Part shown: positions 3,133 to 57,759 of the stretch, piece by piece
Numbering within the stretch: position 1 is the first letter of the stretch
Layout of the letters: each line of letters opens with the position of its first letter
Notes under the pieces: generated by a model
Database searches by the model: none
What the model saw: only the letters and a program-made list of their open reading frames with translations
What the model was told of the DNA's origin: nothing
Made by a program: the position numbers and the translations under genes
Assembly: GCA_934098515.1 (NCBI GenBank)
Contig: CAKOOK010000003.1
Coordinates: 5,070-69,069 of the forward strand
Direction: 5' to 3'
From: an uncultured Bacilli bacterium
Lineage (GTDB): Bacteria > Bacillota_I > Bacilli_A > RF39 > UBA660
Length of the DNA: 64,000 bases

Positions 3133-3271
3133 AATCACCACCAATGTTCAAAACACGTACCAAAACCTCTACTATTATTATTTATCTCTCTCGCATGTCA
3201 GTTTGTCCCTCGAAGGTTTTCTCAAAGGCATCTGCGACTGACGATTTCGACCTTTTAATTTCTCGCCTTGT

Positions 3272-4855
3272 TTACATATTTATTATGAATGGTGAACTAC
3301 TAGTTCCATCACCAGTTACGTTGGTCGTCGACTTAAGAGAAATTGAAGGACGAACGCCGTAGGCGTTGCCCACGCCGCTGTTGTCGAAGTTGCCATAGAT
3401 GGCGAAAACGAACCAAACGTAAGCGTAGCGGCCAATGAAGTAGCTAGGAGACAAAGAACACCAATTATCACTTGTAGCATTTTCTTGTAAATATGTAGTA
3501 GTATTTCCTGTTCCTATAGCATATCCTGCATACGCTAATTCATCTGCTGTTATTAATCCTACCTTTGATGTTATTTTACTTAACTCTCCATTACATATTA
3601 AACTAGGACCAGTGCCTCCAGCACTATTACTTTTACTTGATAATCTTTGTGTGGTGCCATAATATGTCTTGTTTGTGCCATATCCAAGTCCTGTTGGAGT
3701 TCCTCCGGACAACGGATTATAAGTAGTATCCGTCACATTTGTTTTATCATTACACCATACAGTATCATCTATTACTTTTTCATAATCTTTAAGATTATTC
3801 TTATCATACCAAGCCTCTAAATTAGTTAGTATCGTACTTTTATTGGTATTTGCATGTGTAGCTTCATATGTACTAGAGCCTGGTGTTCCATACTTAAATC
3901 CTACATAAGCATTGTCATTATCGTTTGAATTAAATGCACTTGTATATGTAGTACCAGAGTATCTAGCAAATGCTGCATTATCATTATTATTTGCTGGATC
4001 ACAAGGATTAGCTGCTCCGGCAGTATTATCATTATGTAAAATAAGTTTTACTGAACCATCTCCACCAACTCTTACTATTCTCCAGCACTTATTAGCAAAC
4101 TGTACATAGTTATTTGTTACAGCTCCTCTAAAATAATAGCTTGTTCCATAATCATCTTCTGCACTTGCAAGTAATGCCTCACTAGCAGTAGATATTGCTG
4201 CTCCTGGTGTAGTTATTGGAGTCTTTACTTCATTTTTTGCTAGTATTGCTTCACTTAAAGTAGGAACATATTCTGCAGCAACTACACTAACAACTATCTT
4301 ACCTTTCCAAGTTTTATTTAAACCTTGTTCATTAGTTGTTTCTGAATCTAACCAAAGTCTTAAATCAAAAGATTTTGCTTCTTTATTTTTAAGTCCTGTA
4401 GTTTTTAGTACATATCCCTCTGTATTAGTATCTACTTCCCCTAAAGAAAGTGTACTCAAGATTACTGAACTGCCATCATTAGTCCCTTTAGTTGATAAAT
4501 TAGTTTTAACATAATTATCTTTTAAATAAGCAGTGTTAGTACTAGTTCTATATTCACTAACTAGTGCTATAGTTACTTTAACATAACTATCACAATTATT
4601 AGTTAATGTAAAAGTAAATGGTGATTGTTTAAGTCCATCTTCATCACTTATTGGAAAAGCATCAGATAATACTATTTCACTTGTTTCTTCTGTTAAAGTA
4701 GTATCTAAACAAGTTCTTGTACCAATAACATTACTATTAGTTTGAGTTTTAGTAATTCTATAATAAGCATAAGTTACTCCAATAAGTACTAATACAGTTA
4801 CAAGTAATCCATATAAAATTGTTCTTTTCTTCTTTTCTTTCTCTATAATATCCAT
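3272..4855 (-). CDS. surface protein P1: TasA/camelysin-like signal and beta-sandwich plus a C-terminal lectin-like module with a hypervariable patch
   Basis: Long ORF. The likely start is ATG at 4855 (MDIIEKEKKK...) after AGGTGAGG. The N-terminus ...LIGVTYAYYRITKTQTNSNVIGTRTCLD resembles SipW-type signals (GGTFAYFSD...N.F..GTLDL). SFDLRLWLDSETTNEQG resembles the TasA/camelysin fold. The C-terminal half is near-identical to 40097-41401 and 54197-56121 (EALLASAEDDYGTSYYFRGAVTNNYV.FANKCWRIVRVGGDGSVKLILHNDNT). Confidence 0.7.
   Translation of the reverse strand: MDIIEKEKKKRTILYGLLVTVLVLIGVTYAYYRITKTQTNSNVIGTRTCLDTTLTEETSEIVLSDAFPISDEDGLKQSPFTFTLTNNCDSYVKVTIALVSEYRTSTNTAYLKDNYVKTNLSTKGTNDGSSVILSTLSLGEVDTNTEGYVLKTTGLKNKEAKSFDLRLWLDSETTNEQGLNKTWKGKIVVSVVAAEYVPTLSEAILAKNEVKTPITTPGAAISTASEALLASAEDDYGTSYYFRGAVTNNYVQFANKCWRIVRVGGDGSVKLILHNDNTAGAANPCDPANNNDNAAFARYSGTTYTSAFNSNDNDNAYVGFKYGTPGSSTYEATHANTNKSTILTNLEAWYDKNNLKDYEKVIDDTVWCNDKTNVTDTTYNPLSGGTPTGLGYGTNKTYYGTTQRLSSKSNSAGGTGPSLICNGELSKITSKVGLITADELAYAGYAIGTGNTTTYLQENATSDNWCSLSPSYFIGRYAYVWFVFAIYGNFDNSGVGNAYGVRPSISLKSTTNVTGDGTSSSPFIINM
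3311..3445 (-). other. GC-rich, A-depleted hypervariable patch inside P1 (DGR variable-region-like)
   Basis: The coding strand reads TTC ATT GGC CGC TAC GCT TAC GTT TGG TTC GTT TTC GCC ATC TAT GGC AAC TTC GAC AAC AGC GGC GTG GGC AAC GCC TAC GGC GTT CGT CCT. These NNC codons are atypical for the window. Flanks are conserved with the paralogs. Confidence 0.6.
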
Positions 4856-4876
4856 TAGCCTCACCTACTATAAACA

Positions 4877-16580: not shown

Positions 16581-16592
16581 ATATTCCTCCAC

Positions 16593-16722
16593 AAAAAAAA
16601 TCATAAACTAAAGGACGAATAAAATCCGCGGTACCACCTTAATTCATGATTACATGCTCTCTTAATCTTATCGCGATCTCACGCTTTAGCTCCAAGGTCG
16701 TAAATCTCTTCATCACTAACAA
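16593..16722 (-). promoter_or_regulatory. T-box leader (Tyr) with terminator/antiterminator; promoter TTGAAA-17-TATACT at 16727-16755
   Basis: The minus strand contains the T-box sequence AATTAAGGTGGTACCGCG (16627-16644). This is followed by a terminator helix (AUCAUGAAUUAAGG...CCUUUAGUUUAUGAU) and U8. A candidate UAC specifier lies at 16700-16702. Stem I looks unusually short. Confidence 0.75.
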
Positions 16723-25226: not shown

Positions 25227-26335
25227 ATATAAAAGAAAGAATGCTATTAAGAGAAAAATTCTATAGTCCCTATGCTACAAAAGACAAAGAATCAATAAGA
25301 CTAATACCAATAGAAGAAGACATCAGACCAAACTTCTTTAGAGATATAGATCGTATTATCCATAGTACATCTTACACAAGATATATGGACAAAACTCAAG
25401 TCTTCTCTCTAAAAGACAATGACAACATTTCCAAAAGAATGGTTCACGTACAATTAGTCTCTAAAATAGCTCGCACCATCGGTAGAGCACTATCACTAAA
25501 CGAAGATTTAATTGAAGCAGCTGCTCTAGGTCATGACTTAGGACACGTCCCATTTGGTCACGAAGGAGAAAGAATATTAAATAAAATTAGTCTTAAACAT
25601 AATGAAGGATACTTTAACCACAACGTTCAAAGTGTAAGAGAACTAATGGATATTGAAAATGACGGCGAAGGCATCAACCTATCTATTCAAACACTAGATG
25701 CTATCCTATGCCATAATGGAGAACTTGAACTAAAAGAATACCATCCCAAAAAGAAAACAACTGATGAATTTTTACAAGACTATGAAAATTGTTATAAAAT
25801 TGAAGGATACACCAAAACACTTATCCCAAACACTTTAGAAGGATGTGTAGTTAGAATAAGCGACATCATCGCCTATCTAGGAAGAGATATTGAAGACGCT
25901 GAACGTCTTAATCTAATAAAAAAAGAAGACCTACCAAAAGAAATAACTGACATTATTGGTTCAACCAACAAAGAAATAGTAAACACATTAATAATGGATA
26001 TCATAAATAATAGTATAGACAAACCTTATCTTAAAATGAGCGATAACGTTTTCGAAGCACTAAAAAAACTAAAAAAATTCAACTACGAAAACATCTACTC
26101 AAAAGCCAACACCAAAGAAGAACTAGCTGAATATGAAAACATGTTTGAAAGCCTATTTAACCATCTACTAAAAGACATTAAAGACAACAACACAGATAGT
26201 AACATCTACAAAATATTTATAAAAAACAAAAATGAAAAATATAGACGAAACACCCCAGAAAGAATTGCTATCGACTACATCGCAGGTATGACCGATGACT
26301 TCTTCTTAAAAGAATATAAAAAATATGAGAACTAA
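25223..26335 (+). CDS. HD-domain dNTP triphosphohydrolase-like protein
   Basis: AALGHDLGHVPFGHEGE is the dGTPase-type HD motif. The C-terminal ...IAGMTDDFF is typical of the family. Confidence 0.75.
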   Translation: MNIKERMLLREKFYSPYATKDKESIRLIPIEEDIRPNFFRDIDRIIHSTSYTRYMDKTQVFSLKDNDNISKRMVHVQLVSKIARTIGRALSLNEDLIEAAALGHDLGHVPFGHEGERILNKISLKHNEGYFNHNVQSVRELMDIENDGEGINLSIQTLDAILCHNGELELKEYHPKKKTTDEFLQDYENCYKIEGYTKTLIPNTLEGCVVRISDIIAYLGRDIEDAERLNLIKKEDLPKEITDIIGSTNKEIVNTLIMDIINNSIDKPYLKMSDNVFEALKKLKKFNYENIYSKANTKEELAEYENMFESLFNHLLKDIKDNNTDSNIYKIFIKNKNEKYRRNTPERIAIDYIAGMTDDFFLKEYKKYEN

Positions 26336-40096: not shown

Positions 40097-41401
40097 CTAA
40101 TTTACAATATAAGGTTTTTCACTTGTACCATCACCGGTCACGTTGGTAGAGGGCTTAAGAGAAATCGAAGGACGGACATTACCCGCATCGCTCACGCTGT
40201 CGTGGCCGAAGTTTCCAGCCTTGCCACCAACGCGCCAAACGTGAGCACGACCAATGGGAGAAAATTCAACAGGTGACAGAGTCCACAGCCAACCGTCCGT
40301 AGCATTTTCTTGTAAATATGTTGTGCCATTATTTAATCCATAAGCATATCCTGCAAATACTACCTCATCCGCAGTTAATAAACCTATTTTTGATTTTATT
40401 TTACTTAATTTTCCATTACATTTTAAACTAGGACCCGTGCCTCCAGCACTACCACTTGAACTTACTAATCTTTGTGTAGCACCATAATATGTTTTATTTG
40501 TGCCATACCCTAATCCTGTTGGTTTTTTCCCATATGACCATGGATTATAACTTATATCAGTTATATTTGTTTTATCGGTGCACCATATATTGTCATCTAT
40601 CACGCTTTCATATACTTTTAAATTGTTATTATACCAATTTTCCAAGTTAGTTAGTATTGTACTTTTATTTGTATTTGCATGAGTTGCAGCATAATCATCT
40701 GCATCAACTGTACCGTACATAAATCCTACATAAGCATTATCATCTTTATTTTCATTAAATTTACTTGTATATGTTGCACCAGAGTATCTTGCAAATGCTG
40801 CACTAGCACTATTATTAGCTGAATTACAAGGATTAGCTACTTTTGTAGTATTATCATTATGTAAAATAAGTTTTACTGAACCATCTCCACCAACTCTTAC
40901 TATTCTCCAGCACTTATTAGCAAATTCTACATAATTATTTGTTACAGCTCCTCTAAAATAATAACTTGTTCCATAATCATCTTCTGCGGATGCAAGTAAT
41001 GCTTCCTCAGCAGTAGATACTGCTGCTCCCGGTGTAGTTATTGGAGTTTTAACTTCATTATATGCTAGTATAGTTTCTGAGAAAGCCGGAACTTTTGTTA
41101 TAAACGTTGCATTACACCTCACATTGCCAACACTTATATCATTAAAAGACACTACCCATTTTGTACCATTCCATATAGCCTTTGCATCTACATCTTGTTT
41201 TACTCCATTTCTAGTGCACTCTACAGTTGCTACATACTTATTTGTAGTTGGAAATGTAGTACTAGCTTTGCCATCAATAACAGCTGCCATAATAGGTCCA
41301 CTACTATCTTCTAGTAAATCTTTTTTATCACTCTTATTGTACATAAACATTCCAGAAATAATTATCGTGCATACAATAATTAAACTAATTATTTTCTTCA
41401 T
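40097..41401 (-). CDS. surface protein P2: N-terminal anchor plus a C-terminal lectin-like module with a hypervariable patch
   Basis: The C-terminal 330 aa are near-identical to P1 outside the patch, and long runs are identical at nucleotide level, e.g. GTTTTACTGAACCATCTCCACCAACTCTTACTATTCTCCAGCACTTATTAGCAAA. The N-terminus is a TM/signal, MKKIISLIIVCTIIISGMF. Confidence 0.75.
   Translation of the reverse strand: MKKIISLIIVCTIIISGMFMYNKSDKKDLLEDSSGPIMAAVIDGKASTTFPTTNKYVATVECTRNGVKQDVDAKAIWNGTKWVVSFNDISVGNVRCNATFITKVPAFSETILAYNEVKTPITTPGAAVSTAEEALLASAEDDYGTSYYFRGAVTNNYVEFANKCWRIVRVGGDGSVKLILHNDNTTKVANPCNSANNSASAAFARYSGATYTSKFNENKDDNAYVGFMYGTVDADDYAATHANTNKSTILTNLENWYNNNLKVYESVIDDNIWCTDKTNITDISYNPWSYGKKPTGLGYGTNKTYYGATQRLVSSSGSAGGTGPSLKCNGKLSKIKSKIGLLTADEVVFAGYAYGLNNGTTYLQENATDGWLWTLSPVEFSPIGRAHVWRVGGKAGNFGHDSVSDAGNVRPSISLKPSTNVTGDGTSEKPYIVN
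40127..40300 (-). other. GC-rich, A-depleted hypervariable patch inside P2 (DGR variable-region-like)
   Basis: The coding strand reads GAC GGT TGG CTG TGG ACT CTG TCA CCT ... GTT TGG CGC GTT GGT GGC AAG GCT GGA AAC TTC GGC CAC GAC AGC GTG AGC GAT GCG GGT AAT GTC CGT CCT TCG ATT TCT CTT AAG CCC TCT ACC AAC GTG ACC GGT GAT GGT. Confidence 0.6.
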
Positions 41402-41483: not shown

Positions 41484-43881
41484 ATTTAACTACAACACTA
41501 ACAATTCTCTTTGGTACTACAATAACTTTAACTATATTAAGGCCGTCTGTATATTTCTTAACATTTTCATTATTAAGAGCTTTCATCTTTATTTCTTCTT
41601 CAGAATCATCTTCGCTAATTAATACGCTTCCTCTAAGCTTACCATTAACTTGTACGCCTATCTCAAACTCAGAATCAGTTGTTTTACTTTCGTCATATTT
41701 TGGCCAAGCACTTACTGCAAGTTCTTCACCTAACTTACATTCCTCATTTAATTCTTCAGTAATATGAGGTGCAATTGGATTAAGTAGTGCTAGTAATGTC
41801 CTATAGTCCTTATGCGTAATAGACTCTTCTTTTTCCATAGCATTAAGCAAAATCATTAAAGCACTTACTGCAGTATTATATTTCATACTAAGTAAATCAT
41901 TAGTAACTTTCTTAATTGTCTTATGCATTAAACTTTCTAAATTTTTAGAATACTCATCACCGCAGGTAAGTTTACCTTTAATTCTATCTACTCTTTCTAA
42001 GAACTTCTTACAGCCCTTTAAACCATTCTCACTCCAAGCAGCATCTTTAGGATAATCACCAATAAACATTTCATAAGTTCTAAGAGCATCAGCACCATAA
42101 TTAGCAACCATATCATCTGGATTTACTACATTACCTTTACTCTTACTCATCTTTTCATTGTTCTCACCCAAAATCATACCATGAGCAACTCTCTTCTTAA
42201 ATGGCTCCTTAACGCTTACCAAGCCTTGATCATACAAGAACTGATTCCAGAATCTTGCATAAAGCAAATGTCTCGTAGCATGTTCCATGCCACCATTATA
42301 ATAATCAACTTGTCCCCAGTAATCCATCGCTTCACGGCTAGCAAACTCTTTATCATTGTTTGGATCCATATATCTAATCCAGTACCAAGATGACCCAGCC
42401 CAGTTAGGCATTGTATCAGTCTCTCTCTTCGCCATCTTACCGCAGTGTGGACAAGGTACATTTACCCATTCATCAAGTGTACTTAGTGGGCTTTCTCCAT
42501 TATCAGTTGGTTCATAACTCTTAACATCAGGTAGTACTAAAGGAAGCTCTTCTTCTGGAACAGGAACCCATCCACAATCCTCACAATAAATCATTGGAAT
42601 TGGTTCACCCCAGAATCTTTGTCTAGAGAAAATCCAGTCTTGTAATCTATAATTAGTAGTTTTCTTACCAATATGATTATCTTCTAAATACTTAAGGCAT
42701 GTATTAATTGCATCTTCCTTACCAAGTCCATCTAAAACACCTGAATTAATATGAACTCCATCACCAGTATAAGCCTCCTTAGAAATATCTCCGCCTTCAA
42801 TAACTGGAATAATCTTAATACCAAACTTTTTTGCAAAAGCATAATCTCTAGTATCATGAGCAGGAACTGCCATAATAGCACCAGTACCATATCCCGCTAA
42901 AACATAATCAGAAACATATATTGGAATAACTTCACCGCTAACTGGATTAACTGCTTCAAGGCCATCTAACTTAATACCAGTCTTCTCTTTGCTTTCATCA
43001 GTTCTTTCGATCTCACTCTTTGCTTTAGCAGCATCTTGATAAGCCTTTAACTCATCTATATTCTTAATTCTATCTTGATACTTTTCTAAAAATGGATGTT
43101 CAGGGCTCATTACCATAAATGTTACACCATACAAAGTATCACATCTTGTTGTAAATACCTTAAGCACATCTTCAGTATCCTTAAGTTTAAAATCAACTTC
43201 AGCACCAACACTCTTACCAATCCAGTTAATCTGAGCTGTCTTAATCTTCTCCATAAAGTCAGTATCTTTAAGTCCTTCAATTAAACTATCTGCATAAGCA
43301 GTCATCTTTAGCATCCACTGATTCTTAAGTTTCTTTTCAACCTTAGAGCCACATCTTTCACATACTCCACCAGCAGCATCCTCATTAGATAATCCCATCT
43401 TACAATTAGGGCACCAATTAATATCCTTCTCTGCCTTATATGCTAAACCAGCCTTATAAAATTGTAAAAACTGCCACTGCGTCCACTTATAATACTCTGG
43501 ACTACTAGTATTAATCTCTCTACTCCAATCAAATGATATACCAAGTGCTTTAATTTGATGTTTAAAATTATCTATACACTCACTAACCATCTTACTTGGA
43601 TATACGTGATTTTTTATTGCATACTGCTCTGCTGGAGCCCCAAATGCATCCCAACCAATTGGATATAAAACATTATACCCCTGTGCCCTTTTAAGTCTTG
43701 CCATTGCATCAAGTGCTGTATAACTTCTAACATGTCCTACATGAAGACCAGCACCTGATGGATATGGAAACTCAACTAAAATATAATACTTTTTCTTATC
43801 ACTATTATTCTTAGCAGTAAATACCCCTTCTTCTTCCCATCTCTTTTGCCATTTCTTTTCAATAACTCTTGTATTAATCAT
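41482..43881 (-). CDS. leuS: leucine--tRNA ligase
   Basis: HVGH (LHVGHVRSY) and KMSKS motifs, a CP1 editing domain, 799 aa, and a T-box upstream. Confidence 0.95.
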   Translation of the reverse strand: MINTRVIEKKWQKRWEEEGVFTAKNNSDKKKYYILVEFPYPSGAGLHVGHVRSYTALDAMARLKRAQGYNVLYPIGWDAFGAPAEQYAIKNHVYPSKMVSECIDNFKHQIKALGISFDWSREINTSSPEYYKWTQWQFLQFYKAGLAYKAEKDINWCPNCKMGLSNEDAAGGVCERCGSKVEKKLKNQWMLKMTAYADSLIEGLKDTDFMEKIKTAQINWIGKSVGAEVDFKLKDTEDVLKVFTTRCDTLYGVTFMVMSPEHPFLEKYQDRIKNIDELKAYQDAAKAKSEIERTDESKEKTGIKLDGLEAVNPVSGEVIPIYVSDYVLAGYGTGAIMAVPAHDTRDYAFAKKFGIKIIPVIEGGDISKEAYTGDGVHINSGVLDGLGKEDAINTCLKYLEDNHIGKKTTNYRLQDWIFSRQRFWGEPIPMIYCEDCGWVPVPEEELPLVLPDVKSYEPTDNGESPLSTLDEWVNVPCPHCGKMAKRETDTMPNWAGSSWYWIRYMDPNNDKEFASREAMDYWGQVDYYNGGMEHATRHLLYARFWNQFLYDQGLVSVKEPFKKRVAHGMILGENNEKMSKSKGNVVNPDDMVANYGADALRTYEMFIGDYPKDAAWSENGLKGCKKFLERVDRIKGKLTCGDEYSKNLESLMHKTIKKVTNDLLSMKYNTAVSALMILLNAMEKEESITHKDYRTLLALLNPIAPHITEELNEECKLGEELAVSAWPKYDESKTTDSEFEIGVQVNGKLRGSVLISEDDSEEEIKMKALNNENVKKYTDGLNIVKVIVVPKRIVSVVVK

Positions 43882-44231: not shown

Positions 44232-44242
44232 ACGCCTCCATT

Positions 44243-44427
44243 AAAAAACGGTCCTACATCCAAAGGACGAAAGACCGTGGTACCACCTTAATTTATACTC
44301 TAAGTTTTAAAGGCCCTCACCTAACACATCCAAAAGCAAGTTCATAAATCTTTATTGTTAACTTCCACCACCCGTTAACTCTCTTTAAAATAAATAATTT
44401 ACTACTACTCTTTCTTCATCTGCTTAA
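44243..44427 (-). promoter_or_regulatory. T-box leader (Leu); promoter TTGAAT-17-TATAAT at 44433-44461, overlapping the GH31 gene 3' end
   Basis: On the minus strand: AGAGAG and GGUGGUGGAA stem I motifs, T-box AAUUAAGGUGGUACCACGG (44275-44293), and terminator ACGGUC...GACCGU plus U6. Leu codons CUU/UUG in GAACUUGCUUUUGG are candidate specifiers. Confidence 0.8.
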
Positions 44428-53932: not shown

Positions 53933-54148
53933 AAAAAAGCCCATAATCTAAGGACGAGTCAAACCCGTGTTACCACCTTAGTTTATGAACTTATTTCATA
54001 CACTCATTATCTATAACGTAGATACCGTACTATACTTATCCTATAGTAACATCCGAAGTGATCCTTAATACTTCCAGTATACTTACTTTCACCACAACGT
54101 AAGCTCTCTAAATACCTTTCATATCAACGTCTTCATCAACTGCTTATG
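53933..54148 (-). promoter_or_regulatory. T-box leader (Ile); promoter TTGACA-17-TATAAT at 54155-54183
   Basis: On the minus strand: UGAUGAAG K-turn region, AGAGAG, GGUGAAAG distal loop, and specifier AUC-A at 54060-54062 closed by CUUC/GAAG. Also T-box AAACUAAGGUGGUAACACGGG, a terminator and U6. Confidence 0.85.
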
Positions 54149-54196: not shown

Positions 54197-56121
54197 TCAA
54201 ACCACTTTGTAAGGATTTTCACTTGTTCCTTCACCTGTTACTTTAATGGATGAAACCAAAGATATGCAGGGCGCAACATTCTGGCACCGACCATGTTGCT
54301 GCTCTGCAATTGGCCCTTTATCACGTTCCAAACGCGAGCATCGCTACCATCAAAGTCGTAAGGAGATAATGACCACCAACGATCACCAGCATTTTCTTGT
54401 AAATATGTCGTAGTATTTTGTAATCCTCCAGCATATCCCGAATATATAATTTCGTCTGCAGTTAATAATCCTATTTTATAAGTTAAGTTACCATTACCAT
54501 TTACAGTATCACTAACAGTAAATTTAGATAATTTTCCTCCATTATTATCATTAGGGCAAATTAAACTAGGACTTGCATATATTGTGGCATCTGATATGGC
54601 AGTACCACCATTAATTCTATTTTTTGATCCATATCCTGTTTGATTTTTAGCATATCCTAAACCTGTTCCATAAGTTGAACCACTTGAGTAAGTAGTAAAT
54701 GTACTTTTATCATTACACCATATTGTATCAGCAAGTTTACTTTCAAATGGTGCCAAATTATTTTTATACCATGTTTCTAAATTAGTTAGTATCGTACTCT
54801 TATTAGTATTTGCATGTGTGCTTGCATAATCACTTACACCAGTTGCTCCATACATAAATCCTATACCAGCATTATCATTATAAAATCCATTAAATACACT
54901 CTTATATGTTTTACCAGAGTATCTTGCAAATGCTGCACTAGTACTATTATTTGCTGAATCACAAGGATTAGCTGCACCAGTTGTATTATCATTATGAAGA
55001 ACAAGTTTTACTGAACCATCACCTACTATTCTTACTATTCTCCAGCACTTATTTGCAAACTCAACATAATTATTTTTAACCGCACCTCTGAAATAATAGC
55101 TGATTCCATAGTCATCTTCTGTAGATGCAAGTAAAGCTTCTGTTATATCTTTGTTTGAAGAAATTACCTTATAAGTAAAACTATCTTGTGCAGAGCTTAC
55201 GACATAATAAACTTCTCTTAAATTAGTTGTAGTCTTCATAGCTCCAGCAGTACTTGACCCAGCACTTAACAAAGTATTATATGGTAAATATTTACCAACT
55301 AAACTAGAATATGAATTTGCATATGTATCACTTGTTACAGCAGTTCCCGTTAGATTAAACTTTGTACCATTTGCTTCCCACCCAGTACCATAAGTTATAT
55401 AATATGCCTGAGCTTCAGTTTTTACGGGTATTGTTAGACCTTCAACATCATCTAAAACATGAGCACTAGCTTCTCTTCCAGGTACTGTTAGTGGAGTCTT
55501 AACTTCATTATTAGCTAATATTGCCTCTCTTAAATTCTTTGGTGGCTCCACTTCAGCACTTGCTCCAACAATAACTTTACCAAGATACTTTTTACTTGCT
55601 CCTTGTTCTTTTGTCATACTTTCGTCAAACCATAATCTTAAATCATATGTTTTAGATGAATTTGCTGATAAACTATCTGTTAGTAATTCATAAGCAGTAC
55701 CACCATTTTGTGCTTCCATAGTTTTACCACTAGATAAAATAGATGCACTTATTGGTATCTCTCCATTATTAACAATAACTCCTTTAATTAGGTTTGATGG
55801 TATTTCACTTGTACTTAGTGTCTCTACACCTATACTAAGCGTTAAATGCTGATTACAATTATTAGTTACTTTAAACGTATAAGGACTTCTTTCTAACCCC
55901 TCACTATCAGGTATAGGATAATCATTTGCTAAATTAATAGCATTATTAACACCTGTAAATGTTACACTAAAACAATTAGTTGCTCCTAAATTATTAGTTC
56001 CACTTTGTCTTGCAAAATTTTGGAATATAGCAAAACTAACTCCCATTACCAATAAAACAATTATTAATAAAGAACTAAACACCTTAATTTTATTCTTGTC
56101 TCTTGATATTTTATCTTCCAC
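54197..56121 (-). pseudogene. surface protein P3 (TasA-like N-domain plus lectin-like module), frameshifted 17 codons before the natural C-terminus
   Basis: The track ORF 54238..56175 ends ...RMLRPAYLWFHPLK*. Shifting one base at ~54264/54265 restores RPA-ISLVSSIKVTGEGTSENPYKVV* (stop TGA at 54197-54199), which matches RPSISLKSTTNVTGDGTSSSPFIIN of P1. The likely start is GTG 56121 after AGGTGA. A sequencing error cannot be excluded. Confidence 0.6.
54262..54352 (-). other. GC-rich hypervariable patch inside P3
   Basis: The coding strand reads GAT GGT AGC GAT GCT CGC GTT TGG AAC GTG ATA AAG GGC CAA TTG CAG AGC AGC AAC ATG GTC GGT GCC AGA ATG TTG CGC CCT GCA. It is two codons shorter than in P1/P2. 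Confidence 0.5.
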
Positions 56122-56190
56122 TATAATCACCTTATATTCTATAAAAATTATAAAATATAAAGACATAAAATTCAAGAAGAAATATAATAT

Positions 56191-57147
56191 TTATCTACTT
56201 AAAAAATTCATCACTAAATCTACTAATATTTCTTTTTCTTTTGGATTAGACTGTGCTATAAGTAAAGTGATAGCAACTAATGTATTATTATCAATAACTT
56301 GTTTACCATCTTTATAAAGTAGATTATAAAATTCCAAAAAGTAAATGAATAATGCTGCAGCAATTCTCTTGTTGCCATCTATAAATACATGATTTTTTAT
56401 AATTAAATACAAAAAATTAGCTGCTTTTTCTTCGATTGAAGAGTATAAGTCCTTTCCATCAAAAGTTTGATATATATCAAAAATAATTGTTTCCACCCCG
56501 TTATCCCTTTCAAGAGCAAATAAATCACTATCACTACTAAATTTAAGTTTATTAACAATATTCATACAATCTTCATAATTAATTTTATTTTTATTAATTG
56601 TACCATTTGGTTTAATTATTCTTTTGTGATCATAATCATCAAGTAAATTTAGAGCATTAGAATAATTATTTATTACTTTAATAATTTCCTGTGCTTCAAT
56701 TCCTTTTAAATTTATATCAATTCTTCCTGTAATATCAATTAACTTAACTGTTTTTTCTAGATATTCTAATCTCTTTTGATTAACTGCATAACCTTTAATC
56801 ATATAATCTTTTAATATACTAGTAGCCCACTTTCTAAAAATAACACCATTTTTACTTTTAACACGATAACCAACGCTTATAATAACATCAAGATTATAAT
56901 ATTCTATATAATGAGTTTGTGTTTTTCCTTCAATCGCACCATGCTGAGTGGTATTCTCAAATTTTGCGACTACCACTTGATCACTTAGTTCTTCTTCTAA
57001 GGCATTATTAATATGTTTTCTAATAGTTTTATAATCTCTATCAAATAATTTTGCCATTTGTTCTGTATTTAACCAAACTGTTTCATCTTGTATATTAACT
57101 TCTAGTTTTACATCTTGATTTTCAAATAATAAGATTTCATTTTTCAT
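56191..57147 (-). CDS. RhuM-like N-terminal domain fused to a Fic/Doc domain
   Basis: The N-terminal half is ...YYNLDVIISVGYRVKSKNGVIFRKWATSILKDYMIKGYAVNQKRL (RhuM family core). The C-terminal half carries the Fic motif HVFIDGNKR. Confidence 0.65.
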   Translation of the reverse strand: MKNEILLFENQDVKLEVNIQDETVWLNTEQMAKLFDRDYKTIRKHINNALEEELSDQVVVAKFENTTQHGAIEGKTQTHYIEYYNLDVIISVGYRVKSKNGVIFRKWATSILKDYMIKGYAVNQKRLEYLEKTVKLIDITGRIDINLKGIEAQEIIKVINNYSNALNLLDDYDHKRIIKPNGTINKNKINYEDCMNIVNKLKFSSDSDLFALERDNGVETIIFDIYQTFDGKDLYSSIEEKAANFLYLIIKNHVFIDGNKRIAAALFIYFLEFYNLLYKDGKQVIDNNTLVAITLLIAQSNPKEKEILVDLVMNFLSR

Positions 57148-57672
57148 TTATAGTCCTCCTATTATTTATTGTTGTAAAGTAGTTATTCATTTCCTTTTAA
57201 ATTTATATCAATTCTTCCTGCAATATCAATTAACTTAACTGTTTTTTCTAGATATTCTAATCTCTTTTGATTAACTGCATAACCTTTAATCATATAATCT
57301 TTTAATATACTAGTAGCCCATTTCCTAAAAATTATGCCTTGTTTACTATTAACACGATAACCAACTGAAATAATCATATCTAAATAATAAAATGGAATAG
57401 TTCTCGTTACAGTTCTTTTACCTTCTTTTCGAACTTGTCGGAAATCCTGACAGGTTGAATTTTTATCAAGTTCTTCATCAGAATAAATATTGCTAATATG
57501 TTCAATTATATTTGTTCTTGATGTATTAAATAATTCAGCTATTTGTCCTTGTGTAAGCCAAACACTATCATCTTTCATATTAACTTCTGGTTTTACATCT
57601 TGATTTTCAAATAATAAGATTTCATTTTTCATTTATAGACCTCCTATTATTTATTGTTGTAAAGTAGTTATT
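56700..57672. repeat. tandem ~490-bp mosaic duplication (unit 1: 56700-57187, unit 2: 57191-57672)
   Basis: 56700-56829 vs 57191-57320 show 1 mismatch by eye. 57092-57187 vs 57577-57672 are near-identical. The central ~215 bp are diverged. Confidence 0.85.
57183..57632 (-). CDS. RhuM-family protein, truncated tandem copy (no Fic domain)
   Basis: The first 14 codons and last ~50 codons are nearly identical in nucleotide sequence to 56191-57147. The middle is a more canonical RhuM sequence (VWLTQGQIAELFNTSRTNIIEHISNIY). The ORF stops where the duplication junction runs into the 5' UTR of the downstream copy. Confidence 0.6.
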   Translation of the reverse strand: MKNEILLFENQDVKPEVNMKDDSVWLTQGQIAELFNTSRTNIIEHISNIYSDEELDKNSTCQDFRQVRKEGKRTVTRTIPFYYLDMIISVGYRVNSKQGIIFRKWATSILKDYMIKGYAVNQKRLEYLEKTVKLIDIAGRIDINLKGNE

Positions 57673-57759
57673 AATTTCCTTTTTATTTAATAAGTTTTTT
57701 GAGTTGTCGCAAATTTTAGGCAACTAAATAACATAAAAAAACGCACAATCACATGCGTT

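Follow-up and report, generated by a model that had tools for sequence, protein, structure and literature searches.

A G+C-rich, adenine-poor 3′ patch in a surface protein gene of an uncultured gut bacterium: a probable DGR variable region, apparently no longer rewritten

The P2 gene, its patch and its paralogs

The P2 gene lies in a stretch of DNA of 64,000 nucleotides (the window, meaning the whole of the stretch analysed) that has a G+C content of 29.9% and carries its genes almost all on the minus strand. The window includes LeuRS, a T-box leader and a tRNA, and a ribosomal-protein operon follows just past its end; it is therefore part of a bacterial chromosome. The window genes are found on contigs from metagenomes of the human gut (the Hadza and further ENA cohorts), and their host is a human-gut bacterium whose genome is AT-rich and of the Firmicutes type. 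At least 50% G+C per 100 nt is reached in only three places, 3281-3470, 40101-40330 and 54221-54400, and these are the 3′ ends of three paralogous genes, P1, P2 and P3. Two further, mildly G+C-rich places were rejected as ordinary coding sequence, that at 25471-25570 belonging to an HD-domain/dGTPase-like gene and that at 42361-42490 to LeuRS.

The P2 protein begins with a hydrophobic N-terminal segment, which is followed by a C-terminal module of about 300 aa of the DUF6273 type. Its homologs number 7024 in our search, and some of them carry PF19789. An earlier reading made from the sequence alone (the sequence-only reading) had described P2 as the second copy of a cassette first seen in P1; the copy is real, but two further paralogs had been overlooked, P3 in the window and P4 outside it (Table 1). 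The host of P2 encodes at least four dispersed paralogous surface proteins with C-terminal patches of this kind.

Table 1. Coordinates of the P2 gene, its parts and its paralogs (VR, variable region; TR, template repeat)
Feature	Position	Strand	Description
P2 gene	40097..41401	-	434 aa; from the ORF and its translation; DGR target-family protein
P2 VR	40178..40291	-	Homologous to the family TR; runs from TGGCTGTGG to the AAT codon; from the TR alignment
P2 IMH-like element	40154..40177	-	GTCCGTCCTTCGATTTCTCTTAAG; contains the AT-rich 21-mer
P2 G+C-rich tail	40127..40153	-	CCCTCTACCAACGTGACCGGTGATGGT; encodes PSTNVTGDG; beyond TR homology
P1 paralog	3272..4864	-	530 aa
P1 VR	3359-3463	-	
P1 IMH	3332-3355	-	
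P1 G+C-rich tail	3305-3331	-	
P3 paralog	54197..56175	-	VR at about 54274-54378
P4, fourth paralog	L001:16254-17558		Just beyond the window start; 434 aa; own G+C-rich VR

Over the 171 nt of the patch (40127-40297, coding strand) the composition is A 15.8%, C 25.7%, G 29.8% and T 28.7%, giving 55.6% G+C and confirming earlier counts of about 55% G+C, about one-sixth A and nearly 30% T; the remaining 1101 nt of the P2 gene have 38.9% A and 32% G+C. Compared in windows of 60 nt, P1 and P2 have a nucleotide identity of 67-97% between about 41090 and 40300, of 51-57% across 40293-40174 and of 68-77% in the 3′-terminal part, which bears out the sharp border that had been claimed between a similar body and a divergent patch. 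Of the statement that the two genes are near-identical over about 1 kb, the similarity stands, but it extends over only about 0.8 kb at a mean identity of about 80%, and the N-terminal thirds of P1 and P2 are unrelated. The patch does start earlier in P2 than in P1 (TGGCTGTGGACTCTGTCACCT versus TGGTGTTCTTTGTCTCCT), and the AT-rich 21-mer said to be common to both is found in each (CGTCCTTCAATTTCTCTTAAG in P1, CGTCCTTCGATTTCTCTTAAG in P2), as is the G+C-rich stretch beyond it.

Other features of the window were recorded alongside. Neighbours of P1 (836-2557, 6997-11034 and 11045-12071) have weak N_methyl (prepilin N-terminal methylation) matches in related contigs, and one neighbour gene encodes a 1345-aa LRR_5 protein; the genes beside P1 may form a pilus or pseudopilus-like surface cluster adjoining a DGR target. 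At 56191-57692 a RhuM/Fic-family gene shows a tandem partial duplication, with direct repeats that are 90% identical (56695-56902/57186-57393) and 82% identical (57004-57207/57489-57692), in an arrangement that differs among strains (L005-L008). A T-box leader matched in Rfam lies 5′ of a 917-aa tRNA synthetase gene (53947-54148), and the T-box core GGTGGTACCGCG (minus strand) is also present at 16584-16649 and 44233-44298, upstream of other genes including the LeuRS operon.

Template repeats and an RT cassette in related contigs

In an alignment of 46 P2 orthologs, variation is limited to discrete positions of the scaffold SLSPxxFxxxxAxVWxVxGSxGxFxxxxVxxxxGVRPSISLK, and at the DNA level the variable codons are mostly NNC, a pattern that we read as the signature of adenine mutagenesis of AAC codons. 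The NNC pattern yielded a guess at the template core (GCTAAYGTTTGGAAYGT), with which one genome per species was scanned. The scan found true TRs among many chance matches, the best of them in L031 ('uncultured Tenericutes bacterium UMGS1021' in GenBank). The L031 TR is non-coding and 118 nt long, would encode WWSLSPNNFNGSNANVWNVNGSNGNFNNNNVNNTNGVRP, and holds 32 of its 35 adenines in 16 AAY codons.

Three ORFs of 120, 117 and 356 aa follow this TR. The 120-aa product, as found in related contigs, matches MutS_I above the cutoff (E 1e-6, 29.4 bits). The only NCBIfam match of the 117-aa product is DivGenRetAVD (E 6e-6, 26.5 bits, with the cutoff at 80), and it matches the Pfam family bAvd at E 0.003. 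The 356-aa product is an RT, with an RVT_1 match at E 6e-12 and the motifs YMDD and GIGNMTSQ (I/LGxxxSQ-type). The same cassette, preceded by an adjacent DUF6273 target gene, is carried by L131-L136, L180 and L217-L219, with RT homologs that are 90-99% identical. These contigs and those of the window come from common cohorts; among the few samples displayed, none was common to RT-bearing and window-strain contigs. The phage homologs of the RT include those of Bordetella phage and other DGR phages, with an identity of at most 35% to any phage RT.

Between strains, about 8% of TR positions differ. Another class of TR (NSxGNL...GLRPAISL) was observed in L054, L014, L010 and L097, and P3 and P4 look closer to this class; in L054, a contig of 4 kb, two TRs are separated by 578 nt. 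The DGR loci have a G+C-rich region upstream of the TR (L031:1-240) with no Rfam match, and an Rfam search of the TR-flanking spacer likewise returned nothing. The roughly 120 nt 3′ of the P1 stop codon (3153-3271) are homologous to the spacer that separates the TR from the DGR-adjacent target (L135:8272-8389). One version of the cassette is preceded by holin-like and NlpC/P60 genes (L132:5139-6322), surroundings that are possibly a prophage remnant, and other versions lie between a Band_7 gene and Mbeg1-like/ToxN/PolC genes.

In the window itself, a blastn search of the three patches against the whole sequence (word size 7) returned only the paralogs, so the window contains no TR, and tblastn found no RT, MSL or Avd gene in its 64 kb (best RT match E 1.2). 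A search for the TR core in 2.9 million viral contigs gave chance matches only, in line with a chromosomal DGR serving remote targets.

Adenine-biased variation and the P2 variable region

Across 49 ungapped and distinct VRs, mismatches occur at 57% of TR-adenine sites versus 4.9% elsewhere, and the replacement is mostly G. In L135, the local VR and its TR disagree at 16 of 31 adenine sites and at none of the 72 others; the corresponding counts for the syntenic P2 ortholog in L137, whose flanks are 94-99% identical to the window, are 19 of 31 and 0 of 72. In the window, the P1 VR is changed at 16/31 adenine and 3/72 non-adenine sites, and the P3 VR differs at 15/29 and 14/68. In sister lineages, orthologs that are about 80% identical overall differ mainly at AAY-derived positions. 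The P1 VR is identical in four samples.

The P2 VR differs from the TR at 21 of 31 adenine sites versus 16 of 70 non-adenine sites (Fisher p = 3.4e-5), with one codon-length indel and a changed WWSLSP segment in addition, and its diversified codons fall within 40178-40270. Eleven of the 16 non-adenine mismatches are in the GC-to-AT direction. The third-position C/T differences between P1 and P2, to which the sequence-only reading had drawn attention, are mostly non-adenine changes and not of DGR making.

A non-identical IMH/IMH* pair has been defined for DGRs (PMC5758913), and such a pair is formed here by the VR end CGTCCTTCGATTTCTCTTAAGT and the TR end CGTCCTTATTTTCTCTTAAAT. The IMH element is conserved in 57 distinct paralog tails; an AAT codon in place of GGN directly before it occurs in P2 alone among 63 distinct VRs. 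The description of the cassette as bipartite, with two variable parts, does not hold: the AT-rich 21-mer is the IMH, and the next 27 nt are conserved at the nucleotide level across the paralogs (tails of 57 loci; consensus TCGACGACCAACGTAACCGGAAATGGT) and have no counterpart in the TR. This tail is written in very rare codons, with ACC, CCC and TCG each making up about 1% of their synonymous family and AAC 5% in the window genes; GC3 of the genome is 18%. In 34% of DGRs the IMH is followed by a G+C-rich inverted repeat (PMC5758913); in P2, P1, L135 and L137 the sequence past the IMH forms no significant hairpin (z-scores -1.4 to +0.9). A small G+C-rich hairpin lies 45 nt past the stop codon in L135 (TGTCCCGAG...CGAGGGACA); it is disrupted in P1 and was seen in L135 only.

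Against DUF6273 (PF19789), the C-terminal 200 aa of P2 score 17.6 bits, below the 23.5-bit cutoff; the DGR-adjacent paralog of L135 scores 25.0 bits, and several orthologs carry a precomputed PF19789. Given 46 close orthologs, AlphaFold returned a pLDDT of 33, which was remedied by a diverse alignment (pLDDT 96.2 for a model of residues 130-434). In BFVD the model has 12 matches at E ≤1e-3, most of them annotated as DUF6273, with TM up to 0.63 and with E down to 1e-6 for the best phage DUF6273 folds. Solved structures gave only non-significant matches to the Legionella Lcl C-terminal domain and to C-type lectins (E ≥0.7), and searching the PDB by sequence gave no match. The C-type lectin assignment therefore comes from published work, which describes the DUF6273 domain of phage DGR targets as C-type-lectin-like and as bearing the VR on a surface beta-hairpin (PMC10743442, PMC11792537). 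The surface proteins of the P2 family are likely ligand- or host-binding.

In the family, the TR/VR relationship, the gene set, the IMH/IMH* pair and the DUF6273 fold are matters of observation, and the patch at 40127-40297 is very likely a DGR variable region at the C-terminus of a DUF6273-type surface protein. Adenine-only TR/VR differences are seen in L135 and L137, and P2, compared against foreign TRs, is adenine-biased with 16 non-adenine mismatches and an indel. The accessory genes Avd and MSL are found in the related contigs, an IMH and a non-identical IMH* are both present, and the DUF6273 fold similarity is there; a G+C-rich inverted repeat downstream of the IMH, an optional feature, was not found. 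The DGR is an already known system, to which P2 adds a member.

As is established for DGRs, reverse transcription of the TR transcript is accompanied by misincorporation opposite adenines. The family TR, which lies beside the MutS_I-like, Avd-like and RT genes, would give rise to mutagenized cDNA, and this cDNA would replace the VR under the direction of the IMH at the VR 3′ end (GTCCGTCCTTCGATTTCTCTTAAG), an element not identical to the IMH* at the TR end. Such a history would account for three properties of the patch, one of them being its sharp borders. Its high G+C content would come from a TR scaffold that contains no A, in a genome of 30% G+C, and its depletion in A from the replacement of 57% of TR adenines, for the most part by G.

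History of the P2 copy and its place among known DGRs

The VR of P2 is 100% identical in the eight protein variants of its 90% cluster, which differ elsewhere, and the exact P2 protein is present on all 23 contigs read, from several cohorts; the VR variation among near-identical genomes that is expected of a DGR was not seen in these eight variants and 23 contigs of the P2 lineage. The exact protein also has an NCBI record, contigs that carry it reach 234 kb, and samples with this strain include ERZ28615247, ERZ27286924 and ERZ27287019. The earlier description of P2 as a template-written hypervariable cassette is thus upheld as regards a DGR VR with a TR and an RT in related genomes, but the P2 VR is invariant. 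The separate template proposed for P2 did not materialise. Neither the window nor the nine TR variants contained one, the best fit among the nine leaving 24 non-adenine mismatches in three alignment blocks, and among about 100 related loci blastn detected nothing close to the P2 VR (best match 76% over 119 nt). We lean towards the view that the P2 copy is no longer rewritten and is a frozen DGR product.

Comparison with sister strains bears on how this state arose. The P2 flanks are 95-99% identical to those of sister strains (a difference of 1-5%), the gene body is 66-90% identical and the VR 58-59%, and the non-adenine divergence of the VR is 23%. In-place mutational decay of P2 is ruled out by these near-identical flanks set against the 23% non-adenine VR divergence, so that one has to invoke either the import of a divergent allele or a TR not yet seen; divergence of the gene body together with the VR between such flanks means that the P2 allele is imported or old. 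In the sequence of events that we propose, P2 would have been written by an element of this type, rewriting would then have stopped, and the VR would now be a fixed allele. Recombination probably brought this allele in along with the 3′-terminal 1.1 kb of the gene, which is divergent, and non-adenine changes, including loss of the GGN codon at the IMH start, would have piled up in it.

The P2 body is also a mosaic: within 40600-41090 (aligned with 3780-4260 of P1) it is up to 97% identical to P1, at 40870-40960, and 85-87% identical to its syntenic orthologs, which suggests gene conversion between the P1 and P2 paralogs. In P3, the IMH region has lost 1 nt near 54264. The resulting frameshift ends the ORF at 54238 and leaves the conserved C-terminal end ISLVSSIKVTGEGTSENPYKVV in a different frame (54197-54331); the frameshift is also present in an independent sample (L006).

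Considered as a whole, the best explanation of the patch is a DGR-written VR, to which we assign a probability of about 0.85; that rewriting of P2 has stopped is somewhat more likely than not. P2 might instead be an active remote DGR target, with a more divergent TR of its own elsewhere in the genome explaining its non-adenine differences. TRs do differ by about 8% between strains, a second TR class exists and L054 has two TRs; the IMH core of P2 is intact, and its non-adenine differences include many NNT codons, which could be obtained from an AAT-rich TR. We nevertheless regard an active P2 as unlikely: its VR stays invariant (8 variants, 23 contigs) while other parts of the protein vary, 0 of 9 TRs fit it, 11 of its 16 non-adenine changes run from GC to AT as they would from ordinary mutation in P2's genome, and the GGN before the IMH has been lost uniquely in P2. 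It is highly improbable that paralog recombination, gene conversion or horizontal acquisition produced the patch with no retroelement at all: such exchange would fit a gene body at 66-90% identity to the syntenic orthologs between flanks at 95-99%, the greater closeness of P2 to P1 than to its own orthologs (97% at 40870-40960) and a patch unchanged within the P2 lineage, but it leaves the adenine-specific pattern unexplained (p = 3.4e-5 in P2, 0/72 non-adenine changes in the ortholog), does not account for the NNC codon structure or the IMH/IMH* pair, and has to contend with matching non-coding TRs that adjoin RT genes. Recombination probably moved the P2 allele but did not create the patch.

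Beyond the DGR-written and no longer rewritten VR, two linked and decidedly tentative readings, which we hold to be doubtful, are that locked VRs are passed on, by inheritance or through recombination, as stable alleles and that the 27-nt tail acts as a recognition element. The lock in P2 could be the GGN-to-AAT change at the IMH start, and P3 could have been disabled by its 1-nt deletion. The tail may be a hairpin-less recipient-site recognition element of an MSL/Avd-type DGR, taking the place of the Bordetella phage cruciform.

Multi-target chromosomal DGRs have been described in Treponema and in Legionella, there with an MSL accessory gene (Wu et al. 2018, PMC5758913), and MSL co-occurs with avd in DGRs (PMC5758913). 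The P2 family resembles these systems in that its TR lies beside RT, Avd and MSL genes, IMH and IMH* are non-identical, the VRs are at the C-termini of dispersed paralogous surface proteins and TR/VR differences, as in L135 and L137, are adenine-only. It differs from them in its host, an uncultured AT-rich gut bacterium, and in its DUF6273-type targets; P2 and P1 have no G+C-rich inverted repeat after the IMH, the window holds targets only, and P2 has many non-adenine changes and P3 a frameshift.

Phage DUF6273 targets ('tentaclins', Faecalibacterium prophage; PMC10743442, PMC11792537) have the same VR-bearing domain family, which the P2 model matches at E 1e-6 to 1e-3. In P2, unlike in these phage proteins, the domain sits within a larger module of about 300 aa of cellular membrane-anchored proteins, and the TR core of the P2 family was not found in the 2.9 million viral contigs. 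The P2 family also works on the same principle as the DGR of Bordetella phage BPP-1, in which adenines are the mutagenized positions of a C-terminal VR and an IMH marks its 3′ boundary, and BPP-1-type RTs are among the phage homologs of the RT. The BPP-1 DGR (mtd-TR-avd-brt) is the reference system. The element of the P2 family differs from it in being chromosomal and multi-target and in having an extra MutS_I-like gene; it has no cruciform, its target fold is DUF6273 and not Mtd, and its RT is at most 35% identical to phage RTs.

A patch of 55% G+C in a genome of 30% G+C is a striking anomaly, and it is very probably explained by a known mechanism, in which one retroelement would be devoted to several dispersed surface proteins in an uncultured gut bacterium. 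The targets stand side by side in different states, P1 nearly clean, P2 apparently fixed, with non-adenine changes and an altered IMH start, and P3 frameshifted, and so offer a view of how DGR targets retire. The rare-codon tail after the IMH is a candidate recipient-site signal in DGRs that have no inverted repeat and, if the reading is true, locked VRs would be a natural example of switching off DGR targets.
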